Shown here piece by piece: positions 2,896 to 19,276 of a DNA stretch of 64,000 nt. Location of the stretch: contig CAXXTB010000002.1 in assembly GCA_963676795.2 (NCBI GenBank), positions 155,647-219,646 on the forward strand, in the 5' to 3' direction. The stretch comes from Geopsychrobacteraceae bacterium (lineage in GTDB: Bacteria; Desulfobacterota; Desulfuromonadia; Desulfuromonadales; Geopsychrobacteraceae). Each line of letters begins with the position of its first letter. The first letter of the stretch is position 1. The translations under genes were made by a program, and so were the position numbers. The notes under the pieces were generated by a model. It was not told the DNA's origin, searched no databases, and saw nothing but the letters and a program-made list of their open reading frames with translations.

Positions 2896-3335
2896 GGGCC
2901 GTTTCGCTGGTTTGGGCCGTAAGGAGAAGTCACAAGCGGTTTAGGTCGTTATGAAAAGTTTCCTTGATAGCGTCGGCACAAGCCGGCATGGATTAGGAGG
3001 TGAAAGTCCTCTACGTGGTAAAGGCTAGCGACCAGCCATGACCCCGAGTCATGCGTCGGCAGCCCGTAAGGGTTGCGGCGAAGCGTTGACAGGGGGCGTG
3101 CAGGCCAGGCTATTGAGCTCCGAAATCATCCAATCCGGGTTGCCGACCTTGTAAGGAAATGGGGAAGGCCGCACGGTACGTCGCGACATCGCAAGTGACG
3201 ATACCGGACCCGCGGAGTCAGAGACCCAGGGCATGTACGCAAGATCCATGCGCGGAAGCCGGGAGATCCGGGAATCAACCGACCACGATCCGATGGTCGG
3301 TTCGGTCGGGAAAGGCACAAGGCCGAACGCCCGAC

Positions 3336-4823
3336 ATGCACGAGCCCCGGAAGTCGGACGAAGGAATAGTATCGATGAAGCGGACGAACAAAGGAAGACA
3401 ACCAGAAGCATCAGGTGAACGATCGGCGGAGTTCGTGGAGAAAAGTCCTTCGGCCAAGGGAAATCCCGTTCAGACGACCGTGACCGAAACATAGGGTTCG
3501 GAAGCAGCGACGAGTGGACTGGACCGGATACGAGAAGCAGCGAAGCGGGACAAGACCCGGCGATTCACCAATCTGCTGCACCATATTACTGAAGATCTGC
3601 TCGACGCTGCCTACCACAAGCTCAACCCCAAGGCCGCTGAGGGCATAGACGAAGTGACATGGCAGGAGTACGGCGAAGGGCTGCAAGAGCGCCTGACCGT
3701 ACTTCGTGATCAAATCCATAGGGGAAGCTATCGCACCAAGCCGAGTAGACGGATTTGGATACCGAAACGGGACGGGAAGAATCGTCCCATCGGGATAGCC
3801 GCCCTGGAAGACAAGATCGTCCAGCAAGCACTGGCAGAAATCCTCCAACCGATCTACGAAGAGGATTTTCTCGGTTTCAGTTACGGGGCACGCCCCGGAC
3901 GAAGTCAACACAACGCCCTGGATGCCATCTATGTTGCGATCATGCGGCGCAAGGTGAACTGGGTTCTGGATGCGGATCTTCAAGGGTTCTACGACAGTCT
4001 CAATCACGACTGGTTGATGAAGTTTGTGGAGCATCGCATCGCCGACAAAAGAGTTCTCCGGCTAATCCGCAAATTTCTGCGAGCCGGAGTCTCCGAAGAC
4101 GGCAAGTGGTCCAAAACAGAGGTGGGGACACCTCAGGGAGCAGTCATCTCGCCACTGTTGGCGAATATATATCTGCACTATGTTCTGGACCTGTGGGTGA
4201 ATCAATGGCGGAAACGCCAGGCACACGGCGAAGTCTACATCGTACGATACTGCGACGACTTCGTTATGGGATTCCAATACCTATCCCACGCACGGATGTT
4301 TCAGATCGAACTCAGACAGCGATTGGCTGAGTTTGGGTTGACGTTACATCCGGAGAAAACCCGACTCATCGAATTTGGTCGTTTTGCCGCCAAAAGCCGC
4401 AAGGATCGAGGCAAGGGCAAACCAGAAACCTTCGATTTTCTCGGATTTACTCACATGTGTGGGAGGAGACGAAAAGACGGAAAGTTCATAGTGCAACGCA
4501 AAACCATCAGGACGCGGCTACGCGATAAGATCAAAGACGTTCGTACCGTCCTGAAGCGCAAGCGACATCGTCCGATGGCAGAACAGGGCAGCTGGTTGCG
4601 CTGGGTCATCCAGGGCCACTTCAATTACTACGGAGTTCCTGGCAACCACAGAGTACTGAATACGTTTCGTCAACAGATCATACGTGCCTGGTTGCAGGCA
4701 CTACGCAGCCGCAGCCAGAGAGGACGCAGTTTAACGTGGCGGCGTATGCGGGTCTGGATAGATCGATGGATACCCCGGACAAGAGTGTGTCACCCATACC
4801 CGAATCAACGCCTCTGCGTCTGA
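3336..4823 (+). pseudogene. group II intron reverse transcriptase/maturase, reading frame interrupted by in-frame TAG at 3492-3494
   Basis: Track ORFs 3159..3494 and 3654..4823 share one frame and are separated only by the TAG. Joined they read MHEPRKSDEGIVSMKRTNKG...TVTET*GSEAATSGLDRIREAAKRDKTRRFTNLLHHI...GIDEVTWQEY, a typical group II RT N-terminus. RT motifs present: RRIWIPKRDGKNRPIGI, TPQGAVISPLLANIYL, YCDD at 4248-4259. The maturase X tail is HFNYYGV...HPYPNQRL. Confidence 0.7.
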
Positions 4824-10686: not shown

Positions 10687-12054
10687 TTAACTGCTTTGAG
10701 CGGCCTTGTCGCTGAGAATGACAAGGATTCTCTGGCGCCACTGGCGAGGGTGGTGTAACTGTTTCAGGGCGCCCACCATGCAGCTGAGGTCCTCGGCCGA
10801 GAGGGGGATTTCCTGAAAGTGTTTTTGGCGGTAGCCGTGATGAATTCGCTCGATTGCCGGCTGCAGTTCGGCAAACAATGAACCCAGGCGGCGACAATAT
10901 TGGTGTGGGGTTTCAGCCTGGCGCGGCGGAACCCCGCTGCGCGTGCCCCAGAGAATCAGGCGTCTGAAACAATCTTCACTGGTGTAGCTTTTGCGCCGCA
11001 AAAAATTGTAGGCGCTTCTGAACAGCAGCGCGATAACCTTGAGCAGCCGAACTGGTATCCGGATAAACCCGGAACGCTGAAGTTGTGGTCTGGCGTTTGA
11101 GCCTTTTGCCCAGAGCAGGCGCAGCAGCGTGGCCAGAATCAGGCCGAGAAAAAACAGGCCGACGAGAATGAGGACCGCGGCGAACAGATACTGGGCGACG
11201 CTGAAATGGTGGAACAGATCGGGGCGGAGCACTGTCTCAAGAGCAGGGTCCGCTGATTTCGCTTGGGACGGAAGCTTGCCCAGTCCCGCGGGGCTGTAGC
11301 TGAAGATTGCATGGAGAACCGCCTCTAGAGGTTTCAGCAGCACGGAACCGGATGTGCCGATCCCCTCGATCGTTGTTTTGGTGATTCGGCTGATTTGCGG
11401 ATAGAGCAGGGTGACGATGGCCAGGATTCCGCAGAACAGCGCCGTTGAACTGAGCCAGAACAGCAGCCCCCTTCTTACCGTCGTGCCGATTCGTTGCGCT
11501 GAGGCCTGGTGGCTCTCTGCAAGGGTTATGGCTCCCAGAATGAAAAAGCAGAGATAGGGCAATGGGCCCGGAACAGCAAGCTGTAAACCTTCTTTGTAGC
11601 TGAGCCAGAGTTTGCTTAAAGCGAGCAGAAAGAGCCAGAAGGCTCCCCGGTCAAAGATTCTGCAGATCCTGAAATAACTGGTTTCCTTGAGTGGTAGCTG
11701 GGCGCCGAGAGTCATGAAGAGCAAACTTAAGACGATGAACAGGACCAGCTGATACCAGCTTCCCACGGAATGCGGTTGACGCAGTGCCGCCTGCCAGTTC
11801 AACAGCGCGTAGAGGATGACAGCGCCAAGCGGTATCTGCAGCAGCAGAATCCAGAAAATGCGCAGGCGACGTTCGGTCGCAATGAGCGATAGCAACATCG
11901 GCAGGATATAGGCGATGAGGCCGCTTAAGAAGGAGTAGTTACCGCCCTGTCCCGCCGAGATCAGGTAGCTGCTCCAGGCTTGAAGCCAGCACAGGTTCAT
12001 ACCCGCACAGAGGATCAGCCGGAGCAACGACTGTGGCGTGGTTATTCCAGGCAT
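10687..12054 (-). CDS. polytopic membrane protein with C-terminal DUF4129-like domain; third gene of the MoxR operon, no transglutaminase core seen
   Basis: Many TM helices in residues 1-330. The C-terminus ...ETPHQYCRRLGSLFAELQPAIERIHHGYRQKHFQEIPLSAEDL resembles DUF4129. The start overlaps the DUF58 gene by 13 nt. Confidence 0.65.
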   Translation of the reverse strand: MPGITTPQSLLRLILCAGMNLCWLQAWSSYLISAGQGGNYSFLSGLIAYILPMLLSLIATERRLRIFWILLLQIPLGAVILYALLNWQAALRQPHSVGSWYQLVLFIVLSLLFMTLGAQLPLKETSYFRICRIFDRGAFWLFLLALSKLWLSYKEGLQLAVPGPLPYLCFFILGAITLAESHQASAQRIGTTVRRGLLFWLSSTALFCGILAIVTLLYPQISRITKTTIEGIGTSGSVLLKPLEAVLHAIFSYSPAGLGKLPSQAKSADPALETVLRPDLFHHFSVAQYLFAAVLILVGLFFLGLILATLLRLLWAKGSNARPQLQRSGFIRIPVRLLKVIALLFRSAYNFLRRKSYTSEDCFRRLILWGTRSGVPPRQAETPHQYCRRLGSLFAELQPAIERIHHGYRQKHFQEIPLSAEDLSCMVGALKQLHHPRQWRQRILVILSDKAAQSS

Positions 12055-13226
12055 AGGTTCTCCAGTGGGATCACGCGCAGATCGTTGACGGTCTCAGTGC
12101 TCGTCAGCGCCGGAACCAGGGTGATCGACATTCTTCTGGTTTTCAGCAATTTCAGCGCAGCACCAGTTTGCGGCTGATGCTGTGAAAGACAGAGGAGCAG
12201 GATCTGCGCCCCGCTGAGCTGGTGCATACAGCGACCAAGCAGGGCCCCCAGAGTGGGGCCCGTCTCAGCCGTGTGTCTGGCCAGCAGCTCAAACATGTTT
12301 GTCAGGTCGGGATGGCTGTCGGGCGGGACAAGAGCCTCTGGTGCACCGATCATCCTGCCGTTGCTGACCAGGCCGAGCTGGTGTCCCTGTTGGGAAAAAT
12401 GATGAATCAGGCTGGCCGATAGTCCCAGCATCCGTTCAAAGGAGGCGTTCATCTCTTCACTGGCGAAACCTTCCACGTCGATCACCAGCAGGACCTTGCC
12501 CATACTGGCCGGTTCGCAGACCTTTTCACTGAGCCGGTTGAGCCGCGCGCTGACTTTCCAGTTGATTCTTCTGGCCGGCGATTCGCCGCGGTATTCCCGG
12601 CTGCCGCTGACATAGATCGGATCCTCTACCGGGCTGCGCCAGCCCGGGCGGCCGAAGAACAGGCGCTCACTGATCGCCGGTGCTGCCAGGGGGACCAGGG
12701 ACGGGAAAACAATAATCTCGGCGCTGATGACCTGCTTCTTGATGTGGGGGTAGAAGCCGAACGGGTCGGCCGTCAGCAGAGATGTGTCGGAAAAGGAATA
12801 GACTCCGCGACGTAACACGGGGAAATGACACCGGGTCGAAAGCTTCTGCAGGCCCGATAGCCAGAATTGTTGCGAATCCTGTTCGCTGCTACCCTGGTGA
12901 AGAGCGTTGAGACGGCTGTCGACTCTCAGCCACAGTGGAAGCAGGCCGCTGTTCCGTCCGCTGACGACAAGTTCGATCTTTTCACCGGCAAAGACCCTTG
13001 ATGAAGCGACTGAGCAACAGATGTCCAGTTTCCGGCTGACGCGTTTGCTCCACAGGGAAGCACTGACAAACAGCAGCAGGCCCAGAGCGCAGAAAAGGGT
13101 CAGCTCTGCCGATCTGCAGGCCAGGGCCAGCAGCAGGAAAAACAGGGTGAAGACCAGCAGCAGGCGCGAAGCGAAAAGCGACGTGCTGTGCTGCTGGACC
13201 AGGGTTGCTTCACTCATGGGGATCAA
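12042..13226 (-). CDS. DUF58 domain protein (vWA-like, MoxR partner)
   Basis: N-terminal TM pair. DPIYVSGSREYRGESPARRINWKVSARL is the DUF58 signature, followed by VLLVIDVEGF. 4-nt overlap with the MoxR gene. Confidence 0.8.
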   Translation of the reverse strand: MIPMSEATLVQQHSTSLFASRLLLVFTLFFLLLALACRSAELTLFCALGLLLFVSASLWSKRVSRKLDICCSVASSRVFAGEKIELVVSGRNSGLLPLWLRVDSRLNALHQGSSEQDSQQFWLSGLQKLSTRCHFPVLRRGVYSFSDTSLLTADPFGFYPHIKKQVISAEIIVFPSLVPLAAPAISERLFFGRPGWRSPVEDPIYVSGSREYRGESPARRINWKVSARLNRLSEKVCEPASMGKVLLVIDVEGFASEEMNASFERMLGLSASLIHHFSQQGHQLGLVSNGRMIGAPEALVPPDSHPDLTNMFELLARHTAETGPTLGALLGRCMHQLSGAQILLLCLSQHQPQTGAALKLLKTRRMSITLVPALTSTETVNDLRVIPLENLCLE

Positions 13227-14161
13227 CCGGGCATGCCCGGAACCTTAACTGTGCCGGCCAGTTCTGAAAGCAGATCGTTGATCTGAATGCCTTTGATCTT
13301 GGCCTGATCGTGAAGGACGATTCTGTGGCCGAGGACCGGAATGAGCAGTTCCTGAATATCATCGGGAATGACATAGCTGCGCCCTTCCACCGCGGCCAGT
13401 GCCTGGCAGGCTCTCATCAGGGCCATTGAGGCCCGCGGGCTGGCACCGAAACGGATCTGGGTGTGGTTACGGGTGGCCTGGACAATCTCGGCCAGGTACT
13501 CTTTGATCGCTTGTGAGACGATCACCTTTTTGCGCAGTTGCTGCAGGTCATGAACTTCAGCAGGGCTGGTGATAGCCGAGAGCTGCTCGAGGGGGTTCTG
13601 CGCTTCGAAACGTTCAAGGATGGCGACCTCTTCCTGAAGGGTTGGGTAGCCTAGCTCGATCTTCATCAGGAACCGGTCGAGCTGGGCTTCCGGCAGAGGA
13701 AATGTTCCTTCCAGCTCAACCGGGTTCTGGGTGGCGATAACAAAGAAGGGCTGAGGCAGCTTGTAGGTGACCCGGTCGACGGTGACCTGGCGCTCTTCCA
13801 TGCTTTCCAGCAGGCTCGACTGGGTTCTTGGGACCGTCCGGTTGATTTCGTCGGCGAGCAGGATGTTGGTCATCACCGGTCCCTGCTGGAAACGGAACTG
13901 CCCTTCGTTTTGCAGATAGATATTAAAACCGGTGATATCGGATGGCAGCAGGTCGGGGGTAAACTGAATGCGCTGGTAAGTACCGCCGATCGACAGGGCC
14001 AGGGCATGGGCGAGCATGGTTTTGCCGACGCCTGGGACATCTTCCAGCAGGACATGGCCATCGGCGAGCAGGGCAACGACGATCTGTTTGATCGTCTGTT
14101 GTTTGCCGACTATAACGCGCGAGATGTTGTCCATGATGCGCGTGCAGGTCGAAAAATCCAC
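13223..14161 (-). CDS. MoxR-family AAA+ ATPase
   Basis: VIVGKQQTIKQIVVALLADGHVLLEDVPGVGKTMLAHALA (Walker A), ILLADEINR (Walker B), VIATQNPVELEGTFPLPEAQLDRF. GTG start chosen 7 nt after AAGGAG; the track start 14209 is a TTG and ATG 14134 is an alternative. Confidence 0.9.
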   Translation of the reverse strand: MDFSTCTRIMDNISRVIVGKQQTIKQIVVALLADGHVLLEDVPGVGKTMLAHALALSIGGTYQRIQFTPDLLPSDITGFNIYLQNEGQFRFQQGPVMTNILLADEINRTVPRTQSSLLESMEERQVTVDRVTYKLPQPFFVIATQNPVELEGTFPLPEAQLDRFLMKIELGYPTLQEEVAILERFEAQNPLEQLSAITSPAEVHDLQQLRKKVIVSQAIKEYLAEIVQATRNHTQIRFGASPRASMALMRACQALAAVEGRSYVIPDDIQELLIPVLGHRIVLHDQAKIKGIQINDLLSELAGTVKVPGMPG

Positions 14162-14472
14162 AAATAGCTCCTTTGACTCCCCCTCATGAGATGAACAAAG
14201 ACGTCTCAATATATACCCAGAAAGTGTGTTTGGCTATTCGTGTTTACACTTCTTAACAATAAATCTAAGGACGGGAATGAGACGTTTTTTCTAAGCAGAG
14301 AGAGCGGTTTATTCCTATCTGTGGATAACTCTGTTGATAGACGATATTTATCCCCTTTTGGCGTTTATTTCAGTGGAAAACTTCTCAGGGATTGTCGTTC
14401 AGGGTCTCTGTCTGTTCTTCATTGATTGTTGAGAAAGATCGGAGCAGAAGCTGTCGTTGGTGTACCAGAGGG

Positions 14473-14976
14473 TTAGTAGTTTCGGCATCCGCTGGTGGTA
14501 AAGTCGATCTGGGGGCGGCTTCCTGCCGCCGCCGCTTTTCTGTAGCGTACGTAACAGCTTGCCGTTCCTGCATCGACCGGAATAACTTCCGGCCAGTAGA
14601 CCCAGGCGTCATAGACGGTACTGTGGCGGACTTTCCATCCTGATGGCGTGTCGACCATTTTGGTGATGCCGTAAACAGGTGTAGTGTTGTTCGGGGGGAT
14701 CGATGGAAAGCCGTAGGCGAGCTCGATGGTTTCCCCTTCGGCGATAATGGTCGAAGTCGGCTGACTGTCTACGCCATCAATTCTTGCCTTGGCGTGAGCC
14801 AGGGTGGAGGCTGTCTCCAGTGCTCCGATCAGGCCTTCCATTGAGCTGATTATGGCCCGTTCCTTCATGTTGACGAATTTGGGAACGGCGACGGCACCTA
14901 ATATTCCAAGGATGACAATGACAACAACCAGTTCTATGAGTGTGAAGCCACGTTCATTGCTGATTTCTGTTGGCAA
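14473..14976 (-). CDS. type IV pilin / pseudopilin-like protein (prepilin N-methylation motif)
   Basis: ...NERG|FTLIELVVVIVILGILGAVAVPKF class III signal peptide. C-terminal Cys pair (C..26 aa..C) typical of a pilin D-region. TTG start 5 nt after GGGAGAG preferred over the longer track ORF. Confidence 0.78.
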   Translation of the reverse strand: MPTEISNERGFTLIELVVVIVILGILGAVAVPKFVNMKERAIISSMEGLIGALETASTLAHAKARIDGVDSQPTSTIIAEGETIELAYGFPSIPPNNTTPVYGITKMVDTPSGWKVRHSTVYDAWVYWPEVIPVDAGTASCYVRYRKAAAAGSRPQIDFTTSGCRNY

Positions 14977-15337
14977 GAGACTCTCCCATTTCAGTGGAAT
15001 TAGATTTGGCAAATAAATCACTAACATACTGGTGAGTCAACACAATTTTTAATTTCGGATAACATCAGTAATACCTTTTCAGAGCTGATATTCCAGAATA
15101 ATTGCAGGTGTCATCGGTCTTTTGATGGGAATGATCATTTTATCGGTGAAGGGAATGGTTTGAGCCAAAAATATGACATTCCTTCAATGTTGATCTCTTC
15201 CAGTGAAACTCGATTCCATATAATAAAATCTTTTTAAATTATATGTTTACGCTAAATTAGTACTTGATTAGTTGATGTTAATTGATGTAGTTTTGTTCCT
15301 ATTCAGTGAAGTGAACAACGAGTCAAGGAGGCTTCTT

Positions 15338-17868: not shown

Positions 17869-18195
17869 TCAGACTTCATTTTTGTGAAAGACATCGAAGA
17901 AGACGACGCTGTCGTCACTGATCTTTCCGCATTTTTCGCAGCGTTCTTCCAATTTCATGCTGGCCTTCTGGCAGAGTGAACACCACTCATAAATCAGGCG
18001 GTAATCACGGCGGCCGACGTATTTTTTGAAGCGGCTGTGGTGCTGGCCGCGCATCCGTCCGTCCGCATCTTCCGGATTCTCCAGGATACGTTCTATGACC
18101 TGGTGAATGCGTTTAAAGCCGACTGTATCCTGCTTTTTGATCCGTTCCAGTTTGTTTTCAAAGCAGACCGTCGGATGGTAGCTGTAGGGTGGCAT
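17869..18195 (-). CDS. RelE/ParE-superfamily toxin-like protein with CxxC-x10-CxxC insertion; no cognate antitoxin gene seen
   Basis: ...IHQVIERILENPEDADGRMRG...FKKYVGRRDYRLIYEW[CSLCQKASMKLEERCEKC]GKISDDSVVFFDVFHKNEV follows the RelE/ParE pattern (L.nP...g...k.rvGdYRliY...v.f..v.hR). Confidence 0.55.
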   Translation of the reverse strand: MPPYSYHPTVCFENKLERIKKQDTVGFKRIHQVIERILENPEDADGRMRGQHHSRFKKYVGRRDYRLIYEWCSLCQKASMKLEERCEKCGKISDDSVVFFDVFHKNEV

Positions 18196-18477
18196 CGATT
18201 AGTCCTTCCGCAAAAAATAACTGTGAGTTTGTATAAAATACTGGATTCAGGTGTTTTGTCAGCACTTCTTTTATCTTGCCCTCTGAATTTTCATTTCTTC
18301 AATTCAACGCTAACATATTGCTGTCATGAGGAAACCGAGCCTTCACCGTTACTTCTGGCGCAAGCGTTCTTGTGCGCTCCAATGTTCCTTATTCGGGACT
18401 ATAAGTAAAATTTATAGTGTTGATATAAAAAAAATATTTTCTTTCGATTACCAAATAGGTTATGTTTAGTTCGCACA

Positions 18478-18493
18478 GGGCAACAATGTTGCA
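18478..18493 (+). promoter_or_regulatory. sigma54 (-24/-12)-like promoter upstream of the small-peptide genes
   Basis: GGGCAA-caatg-TTGCA against consensus TGGCAC-N5-TTGCA. GG and GC are separated by exactly 10 nt; about 60 nt upstream of the first ATG. Confidence 0.4.
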
Positions 18494-18555
18494 GATAGAG
18501 AAACTGCCCCTGGGGGCTTCAGGCTCATTAACACAACCTCAAAGGAGTAAAGATC

Positions 18556-18651
18556 ATGAAAGGCTTTAAACATTTTGCAGGTACAGGCACCGCCCTTGGT
18601 CTTCTTGTCGTATTTACCGTTATCCTGGCCGGACTGGCAGCTGTCGCCTAG
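18556..18651 (+). CDS. small hydrophobic peptide, 31 aa (paralog 1 of 3)
   Basis: AAAGGAG RBS 8 nt upstream. MKGFKHFAGTGTALGLLVVFTVILAGLAAVA*. Below the ORF-track size cutoff. Confidence 0.62.
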   Translation: MKGFKHFAGTGTALGLLVVFTVILAGLAAVA

Positions 18652-18705
18652 GTGAGTGAAAAGAAAACAAACTTAACCAGCTGATGAAAATTAAAGGAGA
18701 ACGTC

Positions 18706-18801
18706 ATGAAAGGTTACAATCATTTTTCTGGTACTGGTACCGCTCTTGGCCTTCTTGCAGTATTTACAGTTATTCTGGCCGGGTTGGCTGCTGTTGCATA
18801 A
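18706..18801 (+). CDS. small hydrophobic peptide, 31 aa (paralog 2 of 3)
   Basis: AAAGGAG RBS. MKGYNHFSGTGTALGLLAVFTVILAGLAAVA*. 27/31 aa identical to paralog 1 while about a dozen codons differ only synonymously. Confidence 0.65.
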   Translation: MKGYNHFSGTGTALGLLAVFTVILAGLAAVA

Positions 18802-18874
18802 CCGATAGATGTGAATATTGAACGTGAAATCAACGTCAGGAGCAGGAAAAACTGATCAAATAAAGGAGTGATTT

Positions 18875-18976
18875 ATGAAAGGGCTCAAGCATTTTACTGG
18901 AACAGGCGCTGCATTGGGAATTCTTGTTGCTTCCACTCTGGTTCTTGTGGCTCTGGCCAGCTCCCTGGTCGCCTGA
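18875..18976 (+). CDS. small hydrophobic peptide, 33 aa (paralog 3 of 3)
   Basis: AAAGGAG RBS. MKGLKHFTGTGAALGILVASTLVLVALASSLVA*. Shares MKGxxHFxGTGxALG(L/I)L with paralogs 1 and 2. Confidence 0.55.
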   Translation: MKGLKHFTGTGAALGILVASTLVLVALASSLVA

Positions 18977-19008: not shown

Positions 19009-19038
19009 AAGGCCCCGCTCAATTGCAGGGCCTTTTTA
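19009..19038. terminator. terminator hairpin between convergent genes
   Basis: AAGGCCC-12 nt-GGGCCTT followed by TTT. Confidence 0.55.
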
Positions 19039-19048
19039 CGTCCTTGCG

Positions 19049-19276
19049 TTAATCGAGTAATTCAATTTCGGTGGTGACAGAATAAAGGATGCGAAGTTTT
19101 CGCCCGGCGTGGTTTTTCAGCCATTGTCGGGAAACGGGCAGGTCTTCAATTTCAAAGGAATGTGTATCGTTCTCAGTTTTGATTTCGACGCCATCGCTGA
19201 GAATGTTGTCACTGATAATTTCCGAAAGTTGACCTTCATAAGTGCTGGTGAAATTTTGGTTCGCTACCTTTTCCAT
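19049..19276 (-). CDS. hypothetical small acidic protein (75 aa)
   Basis: RBS AGGAGA 6 nt upstream of the ATG. MEKVANQNFTSTYEGQLSEIISDNILSDGVEIKTENDTHSFEIEDLPVSRQWLKNHAGRKLRILYS... No family recognised. Confidence 0.5.
   Translation of the reverse strand: MEKVANQNFTSTYEGQLSEIISDNILSDGVEIKTENDTHSFEIEDLPVSRQWLKNHAGRKLRILYSVTTEIELLD

Follow-up and report, generated by a model that had tools for sequence, protein, structure and literature searches.

Can open reading frames (ORFs) of only about 30 codons be recognized as genes, and what would their products do? This question is raised by a locus at positions 18556 to 18976 of a 64,000-nucleotide stretch of DNA from a Geopsychrobacteraceae bacterium (contig CAXXTB010000002.1; the whole stretch is referred to as the window). 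A first-pass annotation, made from the sequence alone, had proposed three tandem ORFs of 31-33 codons that encode hydrophobic peptides under purifying selection. The three ORFs are located exactly as proposed, and comparison of this array with related loci leads us to a correction of the annotation: the ORFs are almost certainly real protein-coding genes.

We compared 31 copies of the peptide gene read at nine related loci. Among them are 15 different DNA sequences, which encode 12 different peptides. Copies 1 and 2 of the window show 15 synonymous and 4 non-synonymous differences (Nei-Gojobori method), which gives a ratio of non-synonymous to synonymous substitution (dN/dS) of 0.06 (P = 2×10−7, Fisher's exact test on sites). 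The four residue differences had been reported correctly before, while the earlier count of about a dozen synonymous changes was slightly low. Most pairs of paralogues have a dN/dS of 0.01-0.2 at a synonymous divergence (dS) of about 1, and paralogues at this dS are still 87% identical as proteins. In the orthologous pair A1/G1, which spans two species, dS is 0.40 and dN/dS is 0.08 (P = 5×10−4). The variable sites at the first, second and third codon positions number 9, 9 and 23, respectively (P = 2×10−5). No frameshift or premature stop was found in the 31 copies, all of which keep the ATG, the Shine-Dalgarno (SD) sequence and the frame, and the stop codon is kept in every copy that is not cut by an insertion sequence (IS). 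The sole copy that is not intact (P0032, seen in both L006 and L010, which overlap) is cut by an IS21 insertion, and the 31- and 33-residue types differ by an in-frame indel of 6 nucleotides. Frame-breaking indels, which the first-pass annotation had named as the sign of an RNA element, were not found among these copies.

An RNA element was considered and rejected. The Rfam search of the array gave no match, and the array showed no excess of folding over dinucleotide shuffles on either the plus strand (z = +0.99) or the minus strand (z = +2.34). Tandem Repeats Finder called no DNA tandem repeat in the array, owing to the synonymous divergence of the copies. By contrast with the 0.01 matches expected from shuffles, the degenerate codon pattern of the shared motif has three matches in the 64-kb window, none of them outside the array. 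On this comparative evidence, it is the peptides and not an RNA that are under purifying selection, as had been proposed. Since the dS of about 1 between paralogues is much greater than the divergence between the two species in which the array is found, the distinct isoforms must have been maintained for a long time. Such old, retained paralogues point to probable selection for several distinct isoforms, and not to recent amplification.

The peptides are very likely single-span membrane proteins. Beyond residue 7 they are hydrophobic throughout, with a grand average of hydropathy of 1.2-1.5, a hydrophobic, presumably transmembrane, span of 24-27 residues and a net charge of +1 to +2 that is confined to the N-terminal MKGxK head. 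Their hydrophobic moment is low (0.15-0.37, Kyte-Doolittle scale); as references, phenol-soluble modulin (PSM) alpha3 and AurA gave 1.45 and 0.55, respectively, by the same measure. AlphaFold2, run with the family alignment, predicts one helix from residue 2 to residue 30 (pLDDT 87). The residues M1, K2, G3, F7, T10, L14, G15, L17, T21, L24, A28 and V30 are invariant in the 12 distinct peptides. Six of the eight invariant transmembrane positions (T10, L14, L17, T21, L24 and A28) follow each other at a spacing of three to four residues and lie within an 80-degree arc of the helical wheel, and sequence variability is helically periodic (permutation P = 0.02-0.03). This pattern is suggestive, although not conclusive, of a conserved face for helix-helix packing. 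The C-termini are AAVA, SLVA or AAVG, and no charged or aromatic residue occurs after residue 20.

The cationic head described in the first-pass annotation is confirmed, and its single hydrophobic helix is predicted here too. The HFxGTG motif that it called invariant is so in the window only, since relatives show H6Y, G11A and G9D, and the terminal A-x-A applies to copies 1 and 2 (A-V-A) but not to copy 3, which ends in L-V-A, or to one relative, which ends in A-V-G. Its comparison of each peptide with a free-standing signal peptide is not upheld. The hydrophobic region of a Sec signal peptide is usually 7-15 residues long and is followed by a mature domain. The array peptides resemble Sec signal peptides in having a basic n-region before a hydrophobic stretch and, in copies 1 and 2, an A-V-A end. 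However, the terminal A-x-A is not conserved, the stop codon comes directly after the last Ala, and a span of transmembrane length (about 24-25 residues) with nothing beyond A-x-A does not fit the label.

The three genes are probably carried on one transcript (Table 1). Both the AAAGGAG sequence 6-8 nucleotides before each ATG and the short spacers of 54 and 73 nucleotides were found as described in the first-pass annotation, and the repeat units are 150-175 bp long; in the arrays of relatives, the spacers measure 64-106 nucleotides. The spacers of the window are unstructured and the SDs unpaired in our folding analysis, and no internal terminator was found within the array, which ends in one terminal terminator. 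The hairpin of this terminator (−18 kcal/mol, z = −2.7) is credible, as proposed, and is common to the array and to a convergent gene for a 75-residue protein; the consensus scan did not call it, presumably because its stem is interrupted. Taken together, the unstructured spacers, the lack of an internal terminator and the single terminal one make a single transcript the most likely arrangement.

Table 1. Positions in the window of the peptide genes and of the elements around them.
Feature	Position	Strand	Remarks
Inverted repeat ACTATAA-N7-TTATAGT	18398..18418		perfect, 7 bp; candidate operator (inferred); identical in L001
Promoter candidate TTGATA, 17 nt, TTCGAT	18420..18448	+	weak, sigma-70-like; found by eye; low confidence
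Inverted repeat GCAAC-N3-GTTGC	18480..18492	+	putative hairpin of the 5′ untranslated region (UTR) or second operator
SD AAAGGAG, peptide 1	18541..18547	+	8 nt before ATG; at every copy in all loci
Peptide gene 1	18556..18651	+	31 aa, MKGFKHFAGTGTALGLLVVFTVILAGLAAVA; called as a gene in public assemblies
SD AAAGGAG, peptide 2	18693..18699	+	6 nt before ATG
Peptide gene 2	18706..18801	+	31 aa, MKGYNHFSGTGTALGLLAVFTVILAGLAAVA; orthologous to copy 4 in the five-copy form (dS 0.04)
SD AAAGGAG, peptide 3	18862..18868	+	6 nt before ATG
Peptide gene 3	18875..18976	+	33 aa, MKGLKHFTGTGAALGILVASTLVLVALASSLVA; divergent type, always last in the array
Intrinsic terminator AAGGCCC..GGGCCUU, then more U (U5)	19009..19038	+	closes the array; conserved in L001
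Gene for acidic 75-aa orphan protein	19049..19276	−	convergent to the array

Upstream of copy 1 lies a block that is conserved across both species. The right arm of the ACTATAA-N7-TTATAGT repeat matches at six of seven positions in the sister-species locus L006. The promoter candidate, which the consensus promoter scan did not call, lies in a conserved A/T tract, and TTCGAT of the window is replaced by TTTAAT in L001 and L006. In the window, in L001 and, through a G.U equivalent, in L006, the second inverted repeat retains its stem; the loops differ (AAT, AGA and AAG, respectively). A sigma-54 reading of the overlapping −24/−12-like element GGGCAACAATGTTGCA (18479-18494) was rejected because the essential −24 GG is not conserved, being AA in L001 and AG in L006.

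The family appears to be new and is so far found in only two related, uncultured Desulfuromonadales species. The first-pass annotation had not recognized it, and no relative was found in Pfam or NCBIfam (E ≤ 10), in PADLOC or PHROGs (E ≤ 1), or among PDB chains searched with the family profile (E ≤ 10). Tblastn against plasmid and phage collections, a scan of viral contigs and a scan of JGI metagenomes with a looser motif gave no match. In a word-index protein search, whose minimum of 40 residues exceeds the length of a single peptide, copies 1 and 3 joined together yielded no scored match, which is uninformative. A profile hidden Markov model search of 1.84 billion representative proteins returned three sequences, all from this clade, and no longer protein with a related N-terminus. 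The exact peptides are present in the public protein collection and are called as genes on several long ENA/NCBI contigs of metagenome-assembled genomes (MAGs). In the GTDB representative genomes, the motif M-x4-HFxGTGxALG identified one true locus, in OY781919.1 (Geopsychrobacteraceae), and three further matches that are chance occurrences inside large genes. Relatives are seen in this clade only. This narrow range is a lower bound, because gene callers often miss such short ORFs and the sole genome scan used a strict motif.

The window and the loci L001-L005 and L014-L018 belong to one species (their Gate-domain and RelE-like genes are 98-99% identical in nucleotide sequence), and OY781919.1 belongs to a sister species (85% nucleotide identity in the Gate-domain gene). 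Within the first species the array has either five or three copies, as seen from L001 (3308-4102) and L014/L015 (2637-3431) compared with the window (18556-18976). Copy 1 of the window is a mosaic, whose 5′ end corresponds to copy 1, middle to copy 2 and 3′ end to copy 3 of the five-copy form. This indicates that the three-copy form arose by unequal crossing-over with the reading frame kept. The isoform types are kept as orthologues across both species, with the ‘GTAP’ type (dS 0.40, dN/dS 0.08) first and the 33-residue type always last. In L014 and L015 (3330-3431 in both), the 33-residue last copy carries V18D, a charged residue in the middle of the helix; an assembly error or an allele that inactivates the peptide may account for it.

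The five-copy form and the sister-species array also have a 105-nucleotide spacer between the first and second copies (L001 3404-3509 and L006 4506-4611) that contains stem-loops (z = −4.1 and −2.0, respectively). One stem, GACAG..CUGUC, lies directly 5′ of the next SD; the two species share it but differ in its loop. These stem-loops may be an element of mRNA processing or stability; they are missing from the window because recombination removed that spacer. The sister-species array has three copies plus two unrelated tandem peptides of 26 residues, rich in Cys and Trp (MKAKKQCACNPTQAMWVYTSICWKEL and MKTRKQCACNPIQAMWVYSSICWKEL; L006 4770-4850 and 4930-5010, equal to L010 4360-4437 and 4520-4597). 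Each of the two has its own AAAGGAG, and both are absent from the window and too short for gene callers; a scan of JGI metagenomes for these Cys-rich peptides gave no match. The sister array further carries an IS4-type element (DUF4372 and DDE_Tnp_1, L010 4748-5917), and the IS21 element (istA/istB, L010 6215-8413) cuts its last peptide gene.

The neighbourhood of the array consists of genes for a methyl-accepting chemotaxis protein (MCP), a Gate-domain protein, a RelE-like protein, the 75-residue orphan, a SulP transporter and a 469-residue protein without an assigned family; the RelE-like, orphan and SulP neighbours are as the first-pass annotation gave them. The SulP/STAS and Gate-domain transporters flank the region as separate transcription units, in a synteny that is stable in all loci. 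The gene divergent from the array (17869-18195, minus strand) encodes a weak RelE/ParE-like protein of 108 residues with a CxxC..CxxC insertion, and no antitoxin gene adjoins it in the window. Copies at least 90% identical to it occur in unrelated contexts and genomes without peptide genes (L011 4053-4379 and 5001-5327; L012 5001-5345; L013 5001-5372), two of them on one Desulfobulbus-labelled contig. This gene behaves as a mobile solo gene, and since it occurs elsewhere without the peptides, it was rejected as their functional partner. Among 5.8 billion proteins, the 75-residue protein is represented by only two clusters, whose members all belong to this clade, and it has no family match in the libraries searched. 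AlphaFold2 predicts, with modest confidence, a small beta-rich fold (pLDDT 72) without a structural match at E ≤ 0.001, the top matches being OB-fold-containing proteins. In the sister locus disrupted by IS21, the gene is lost along with the 3′ end of copy 3. Given the same clade restriction, the 75-residue gene is possibly associated with the peptides. None of the neighbours points to what the peptides do.

What, then, might the peptides do? The best explanation of the locus as a whole, on which our judgement is evenly balanced, is a polycistronic operon of lineage-restricted small inner-membrane proteins. A regulated promoter region, three SD-led ORFs and one terminator would form the operon. 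According to the positive-inside rule, the basic end of a membrane protein stays in the cytoplasm. The MKGxK/HF head would thus be cytoplasmic, and the Gly/Ala/Thr-rich helix of about 24 residues would span the membrane and end, without a tail, at the periplasmic face (N-in/C-out). Because the peptides are shorter than the ribosomal tunnel, their insertion into the inner membrane would have to be post-translational, as for the 27-residue YohP of Escherichia coli, which is inserted via the signal recognition particle (PMC7549839). Within the membrane, the helices may pack together or against a partner helix through the T10-L14-L17-T21-L24-A28 face and the small G/A positions. We give the formation of helix-helix oligomers an even chance; the isoform types kept across species would suggest a hetero-oligomer.

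Upon induction of the promoter, the peptides might build up in the producer's own membrane and lower its potential or change its permeability. We put forward such a self-directed effect, like that of YohP or of a toxin and without type I antisense control, only tentatively and by analogy. YohP lowers the membrane potential and brings about a low-metabolism state that is protective (PMC12719787), without belonging to a toxin-antitoxin pair (PMC7549839, PMC12719787), and small toxins are believed to oligomerise and thereby depolarise the membrane (PMC12648545). Like the array peptides, YohP is about 30 residues long, consists essentially of one transmembrane helix after a short basic N-terminus, has no catalytic domain and is too short for co-translational targeting. 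In contrast, there is no sequence similarity between them, and YohP is single-copy whereas the array has three to five diverged paralogues in one operon. The suggestion also leans on signs that the locus is accessory and turns over fast: the narrow distribution, the polymorphism of five versus three copies and the IS insertions fit accessory or conflict genes and not housekeeping subunits.

Several points weigh against this proposal. Every functional step in it is reached by analogy, and the neighbourhood contains no gene that can be identified as a partner, regulator, exporter or immunity gene. Strong SDs on three to five toxic peptides in one operon would demand tight repression, of which the upstream palindromes give only a hint, and the peptides lack the charged or polar residues usually found in pore-lining toxins such as TisB. 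The clustering of invariant residues on one helix face is reached by random subsets in 8.5% of trials (P = 0.085). Moreover, the alignment is shallow, with all of its sequences coming from MAGs of two species.

The main rival to a self-acting membrane operon, in our view a rather unlikely one, is that the peptides serve a larger membrane protein as accessory or regulatory subunits, as KdpF, CydX, AcrZ, MgtS and sarcolipin do. Candidate partners would include the SulP/STAS or Gate-domain transporters close by, or a complex whose genes lie elsewhere. A single transmembrane helix with one conserved face, strong purifying selection and the stable Gate-domain/SulP synteny are all in line with a subunit, and many characterised small membrane proteins do work as accessory or regulatory partners of larger proteins (PMC12648545). 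However, subunits such as KdpF, CydX and AcrZ lead one to expect a co-operonic or co-distributed partner, and the array offers none. It is not co-transcribed with a transporter, having its own terminator and lying between the divergent 108-residue gene and the convergent 75-residue gene, and SulP and Gate proteins are widespread while the peptides are found in two species only. It is also worth mentioning that three to five paralogues with copy number variation within a species are atypical of stoichiometric subunits, and that the SulP gene is still present where the sister array is disrupted by IS elements (called there at 507 residues, compared with 534-539 in other loci).

We then considered whether the peptides are type I toxins, which depolarise the membrane and whose translation is normally blocked by antisense RNA antitoxins that would have gone undetected here. 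The peptides satisfy the search criteria of Fozo et al. (2010), being shorter than 70 residues (31-33), hydrophobic with one transmembrane segment, and encoded in tandem in an intergenic region (PMC2887945). Like ldrA-D, ibsA-E, zor and aapA, they are small single-helix proteins in several copies within one intergenic region, restricted to a lineage and missed by annotation (PMC2887945), and the neighbourhood contains the mobile RelE-like gene and IS elements. Nevertheless, three features described by Fozo et al. (2010) are lacking, namely autonomous units, sequestered SDs and a polar C-terminal tail (PMC2887945). In type I loci each repeat is several hundred bp long and has its own promoter, structured 5′ UTR and antisense small RNA (sRNA) gene. 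The units of 150-175 bp in the array, with spacers of 54 and 73 nucleotides in the window, are too short to give each copy its own promoter, long 5′ UTR and sRNA gene; the copies are apparently co-transcribed, and their strong SDs are open. The polar, charged or aromatic cluster that ends such toxins (Fozo et al. 2010) is replaced by Ala/Val ends. As to the antisense strand, a weak promoter-like site (9/12 match) lies inside copy 3, and relatives have minus-strand terminator-like hairpins in the 5′ UTR. Yet the search for antisense promoters that the first-pass annotation had called for found three sites against 2.5 expected, which is the level of chance, and the minus strand is less structured than its shuffles. 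We regard type I toxins as an improbable explanation.

A third possibility is that the peptides are exported, either as a set resembling leaderless bacteriocins or PSMs directed against competitors, or as precursors that an intramembrane protease would process into hydrophobic signals, as with the short hydrophobic peptides (SHPs) of streptococci and the pheromone inhibitors of enterococci. This too we hold to be improbable. Multi-peptide leaderless bacteriocin operons encode homologous peptides, each with its own SD and none with a leader, in one operon (PMC6131525), and in the array, likewise, a single promoter region and a single terminator enclose three to five paralogues, each with an SD. 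It shares with aureocin A70, garvicin KS and psm-alpha the arrangement of three to four homologous leaderless peptides of about 20-34 residues in one transcript; the staphylococcal psm-alpha operon is a familiar case of several short leaderless peptides transcribed together. The retention of distinct isoform types across species, the narrow range and the fast turnover would suit genes of conflict or communication. But leaderless bacteriocins and PSMs are amphipathic, often strongly cationic and Trp-rich, whereas the array peptides are uniformly hydrophobic transmembrane helices whose very low hydrophobic moment and modest charge make them neither amphipathic nor strongly cationic. Such systems also adjoin exporter or immunity genes, and within about 8 kb of the array there is no ABC exporter, peptidase, immunity gene or RRNPP/Rgg-type receptor.

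SHP and pheromone-inhibitor precursors are likewise tiny ORFs with a basic head and a hydrophobic tail that ends the protein, so that they look like signal peptides lacking any cargo (PMC7564271, PMC5167397, PMC4173765), and a resemblance to SHPs is plain in the array peptides. In contrast, SHP genes adjoin an Rgg receptor gene and need the PptAB exporter and the Eep protease; no HTH/TPR regulator adjoins the array, and the hydrophobic span of its peptides (about 24 residues) is longer. The outer membrane of a Gram-negative cell would be an extra barrier for so many hydrophobic residues, and to our knowledge the established examples of leaderless bacteriocins, PSMs and SHPs are all Gram-positive. 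Because the sister-species Cys-rich pair is in the same array, the locus there looks like a peptide-production cassette. By analogy, and with the same low probability as export in general, the array and the sister Cys-rich peptides might together be a Gram-negative cassette of this kind, producing a hetero-oligomeric membrane-active agent or hydrophobic signals between cells. If so, it would be the Desulfuromonadales counterpart of leaderless bacteriocins or SHP-type pheromones, which are so far known from Gram-positives only.

The remaining explanation, that the ORFs are non-functional, having arisen by chance within a repeated element of DNA or RNA or being decaying duplicates of a 5′ gene fragment encoding a signal peptide, is suggested by their very small size, their two-species distribution without annotation and their signal-peptide-like sequence, but it is very improbable and already largely refuted by the concentration of differences at synonymous sites, the intact signals and frames, the protein identity kept at high dS, and the lack of both an RNA structure signal and a longer protein from which they could derive.

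The analogies of the first-pass annotation to type I toxins of the ldr and ibs kind, to PSMs and to leaderless bacteriocins thus each fail in at least one tested defining feature, and these systems, like signal peptides, are resemblances and not memberships. Bacterial small single-span membrane proteins are a known kind, of which the array is a new sequence family with an unusual, but not unprecedented, layout. Annotation systematically misses small membrane proteins, most of which have no known function. This locus shows with unusual clarity, from sequence comparison alone, that its ORFs of about 30 codons are genes, through deep synonymous divergence, a frame intact except in one IS-cut copy, and isoforms retained in two species. 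An operonic array of three to five paralogues whose copy number shifts by unequal crossing-over is not standard for type I toxins or accessory subunits, and this layout suggests selection on dosage or for a hetero-oligomer. If the peptides do depolarise the membrane or act between cells, they would be a new family among the few characterised Gram-negative membrane-active microproteins; if they are merely lineage-specific membrane fillers, their interest is local. At present, their value lies in the corrected annotation and in a defined target for small-protein proteomics in Desulfuromonadales.

Two further regions of the window were observed in passing. Domains D1-D4 of a group II intron are found at 3003-3227 on the plus strand (Rfam RF02005, 187 bits, E = 6×10−55), followed by an ORF of 389 codons (3654-4823, plus strand) that may be the intron-encoded protein. 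An operon unrelated to the peptides (10687-14209, minus strand) contains genes for a MoxR-type AAA ATPase, a DUF58 protein and a large membrane protein, the MoxR and DUF58 genes being named by their resemblance to Pfam-annotated genes in L011. It adjoins a type IV pilin-like gene with an N-terminal methylation motif (14473-15027) and an MCP gene.

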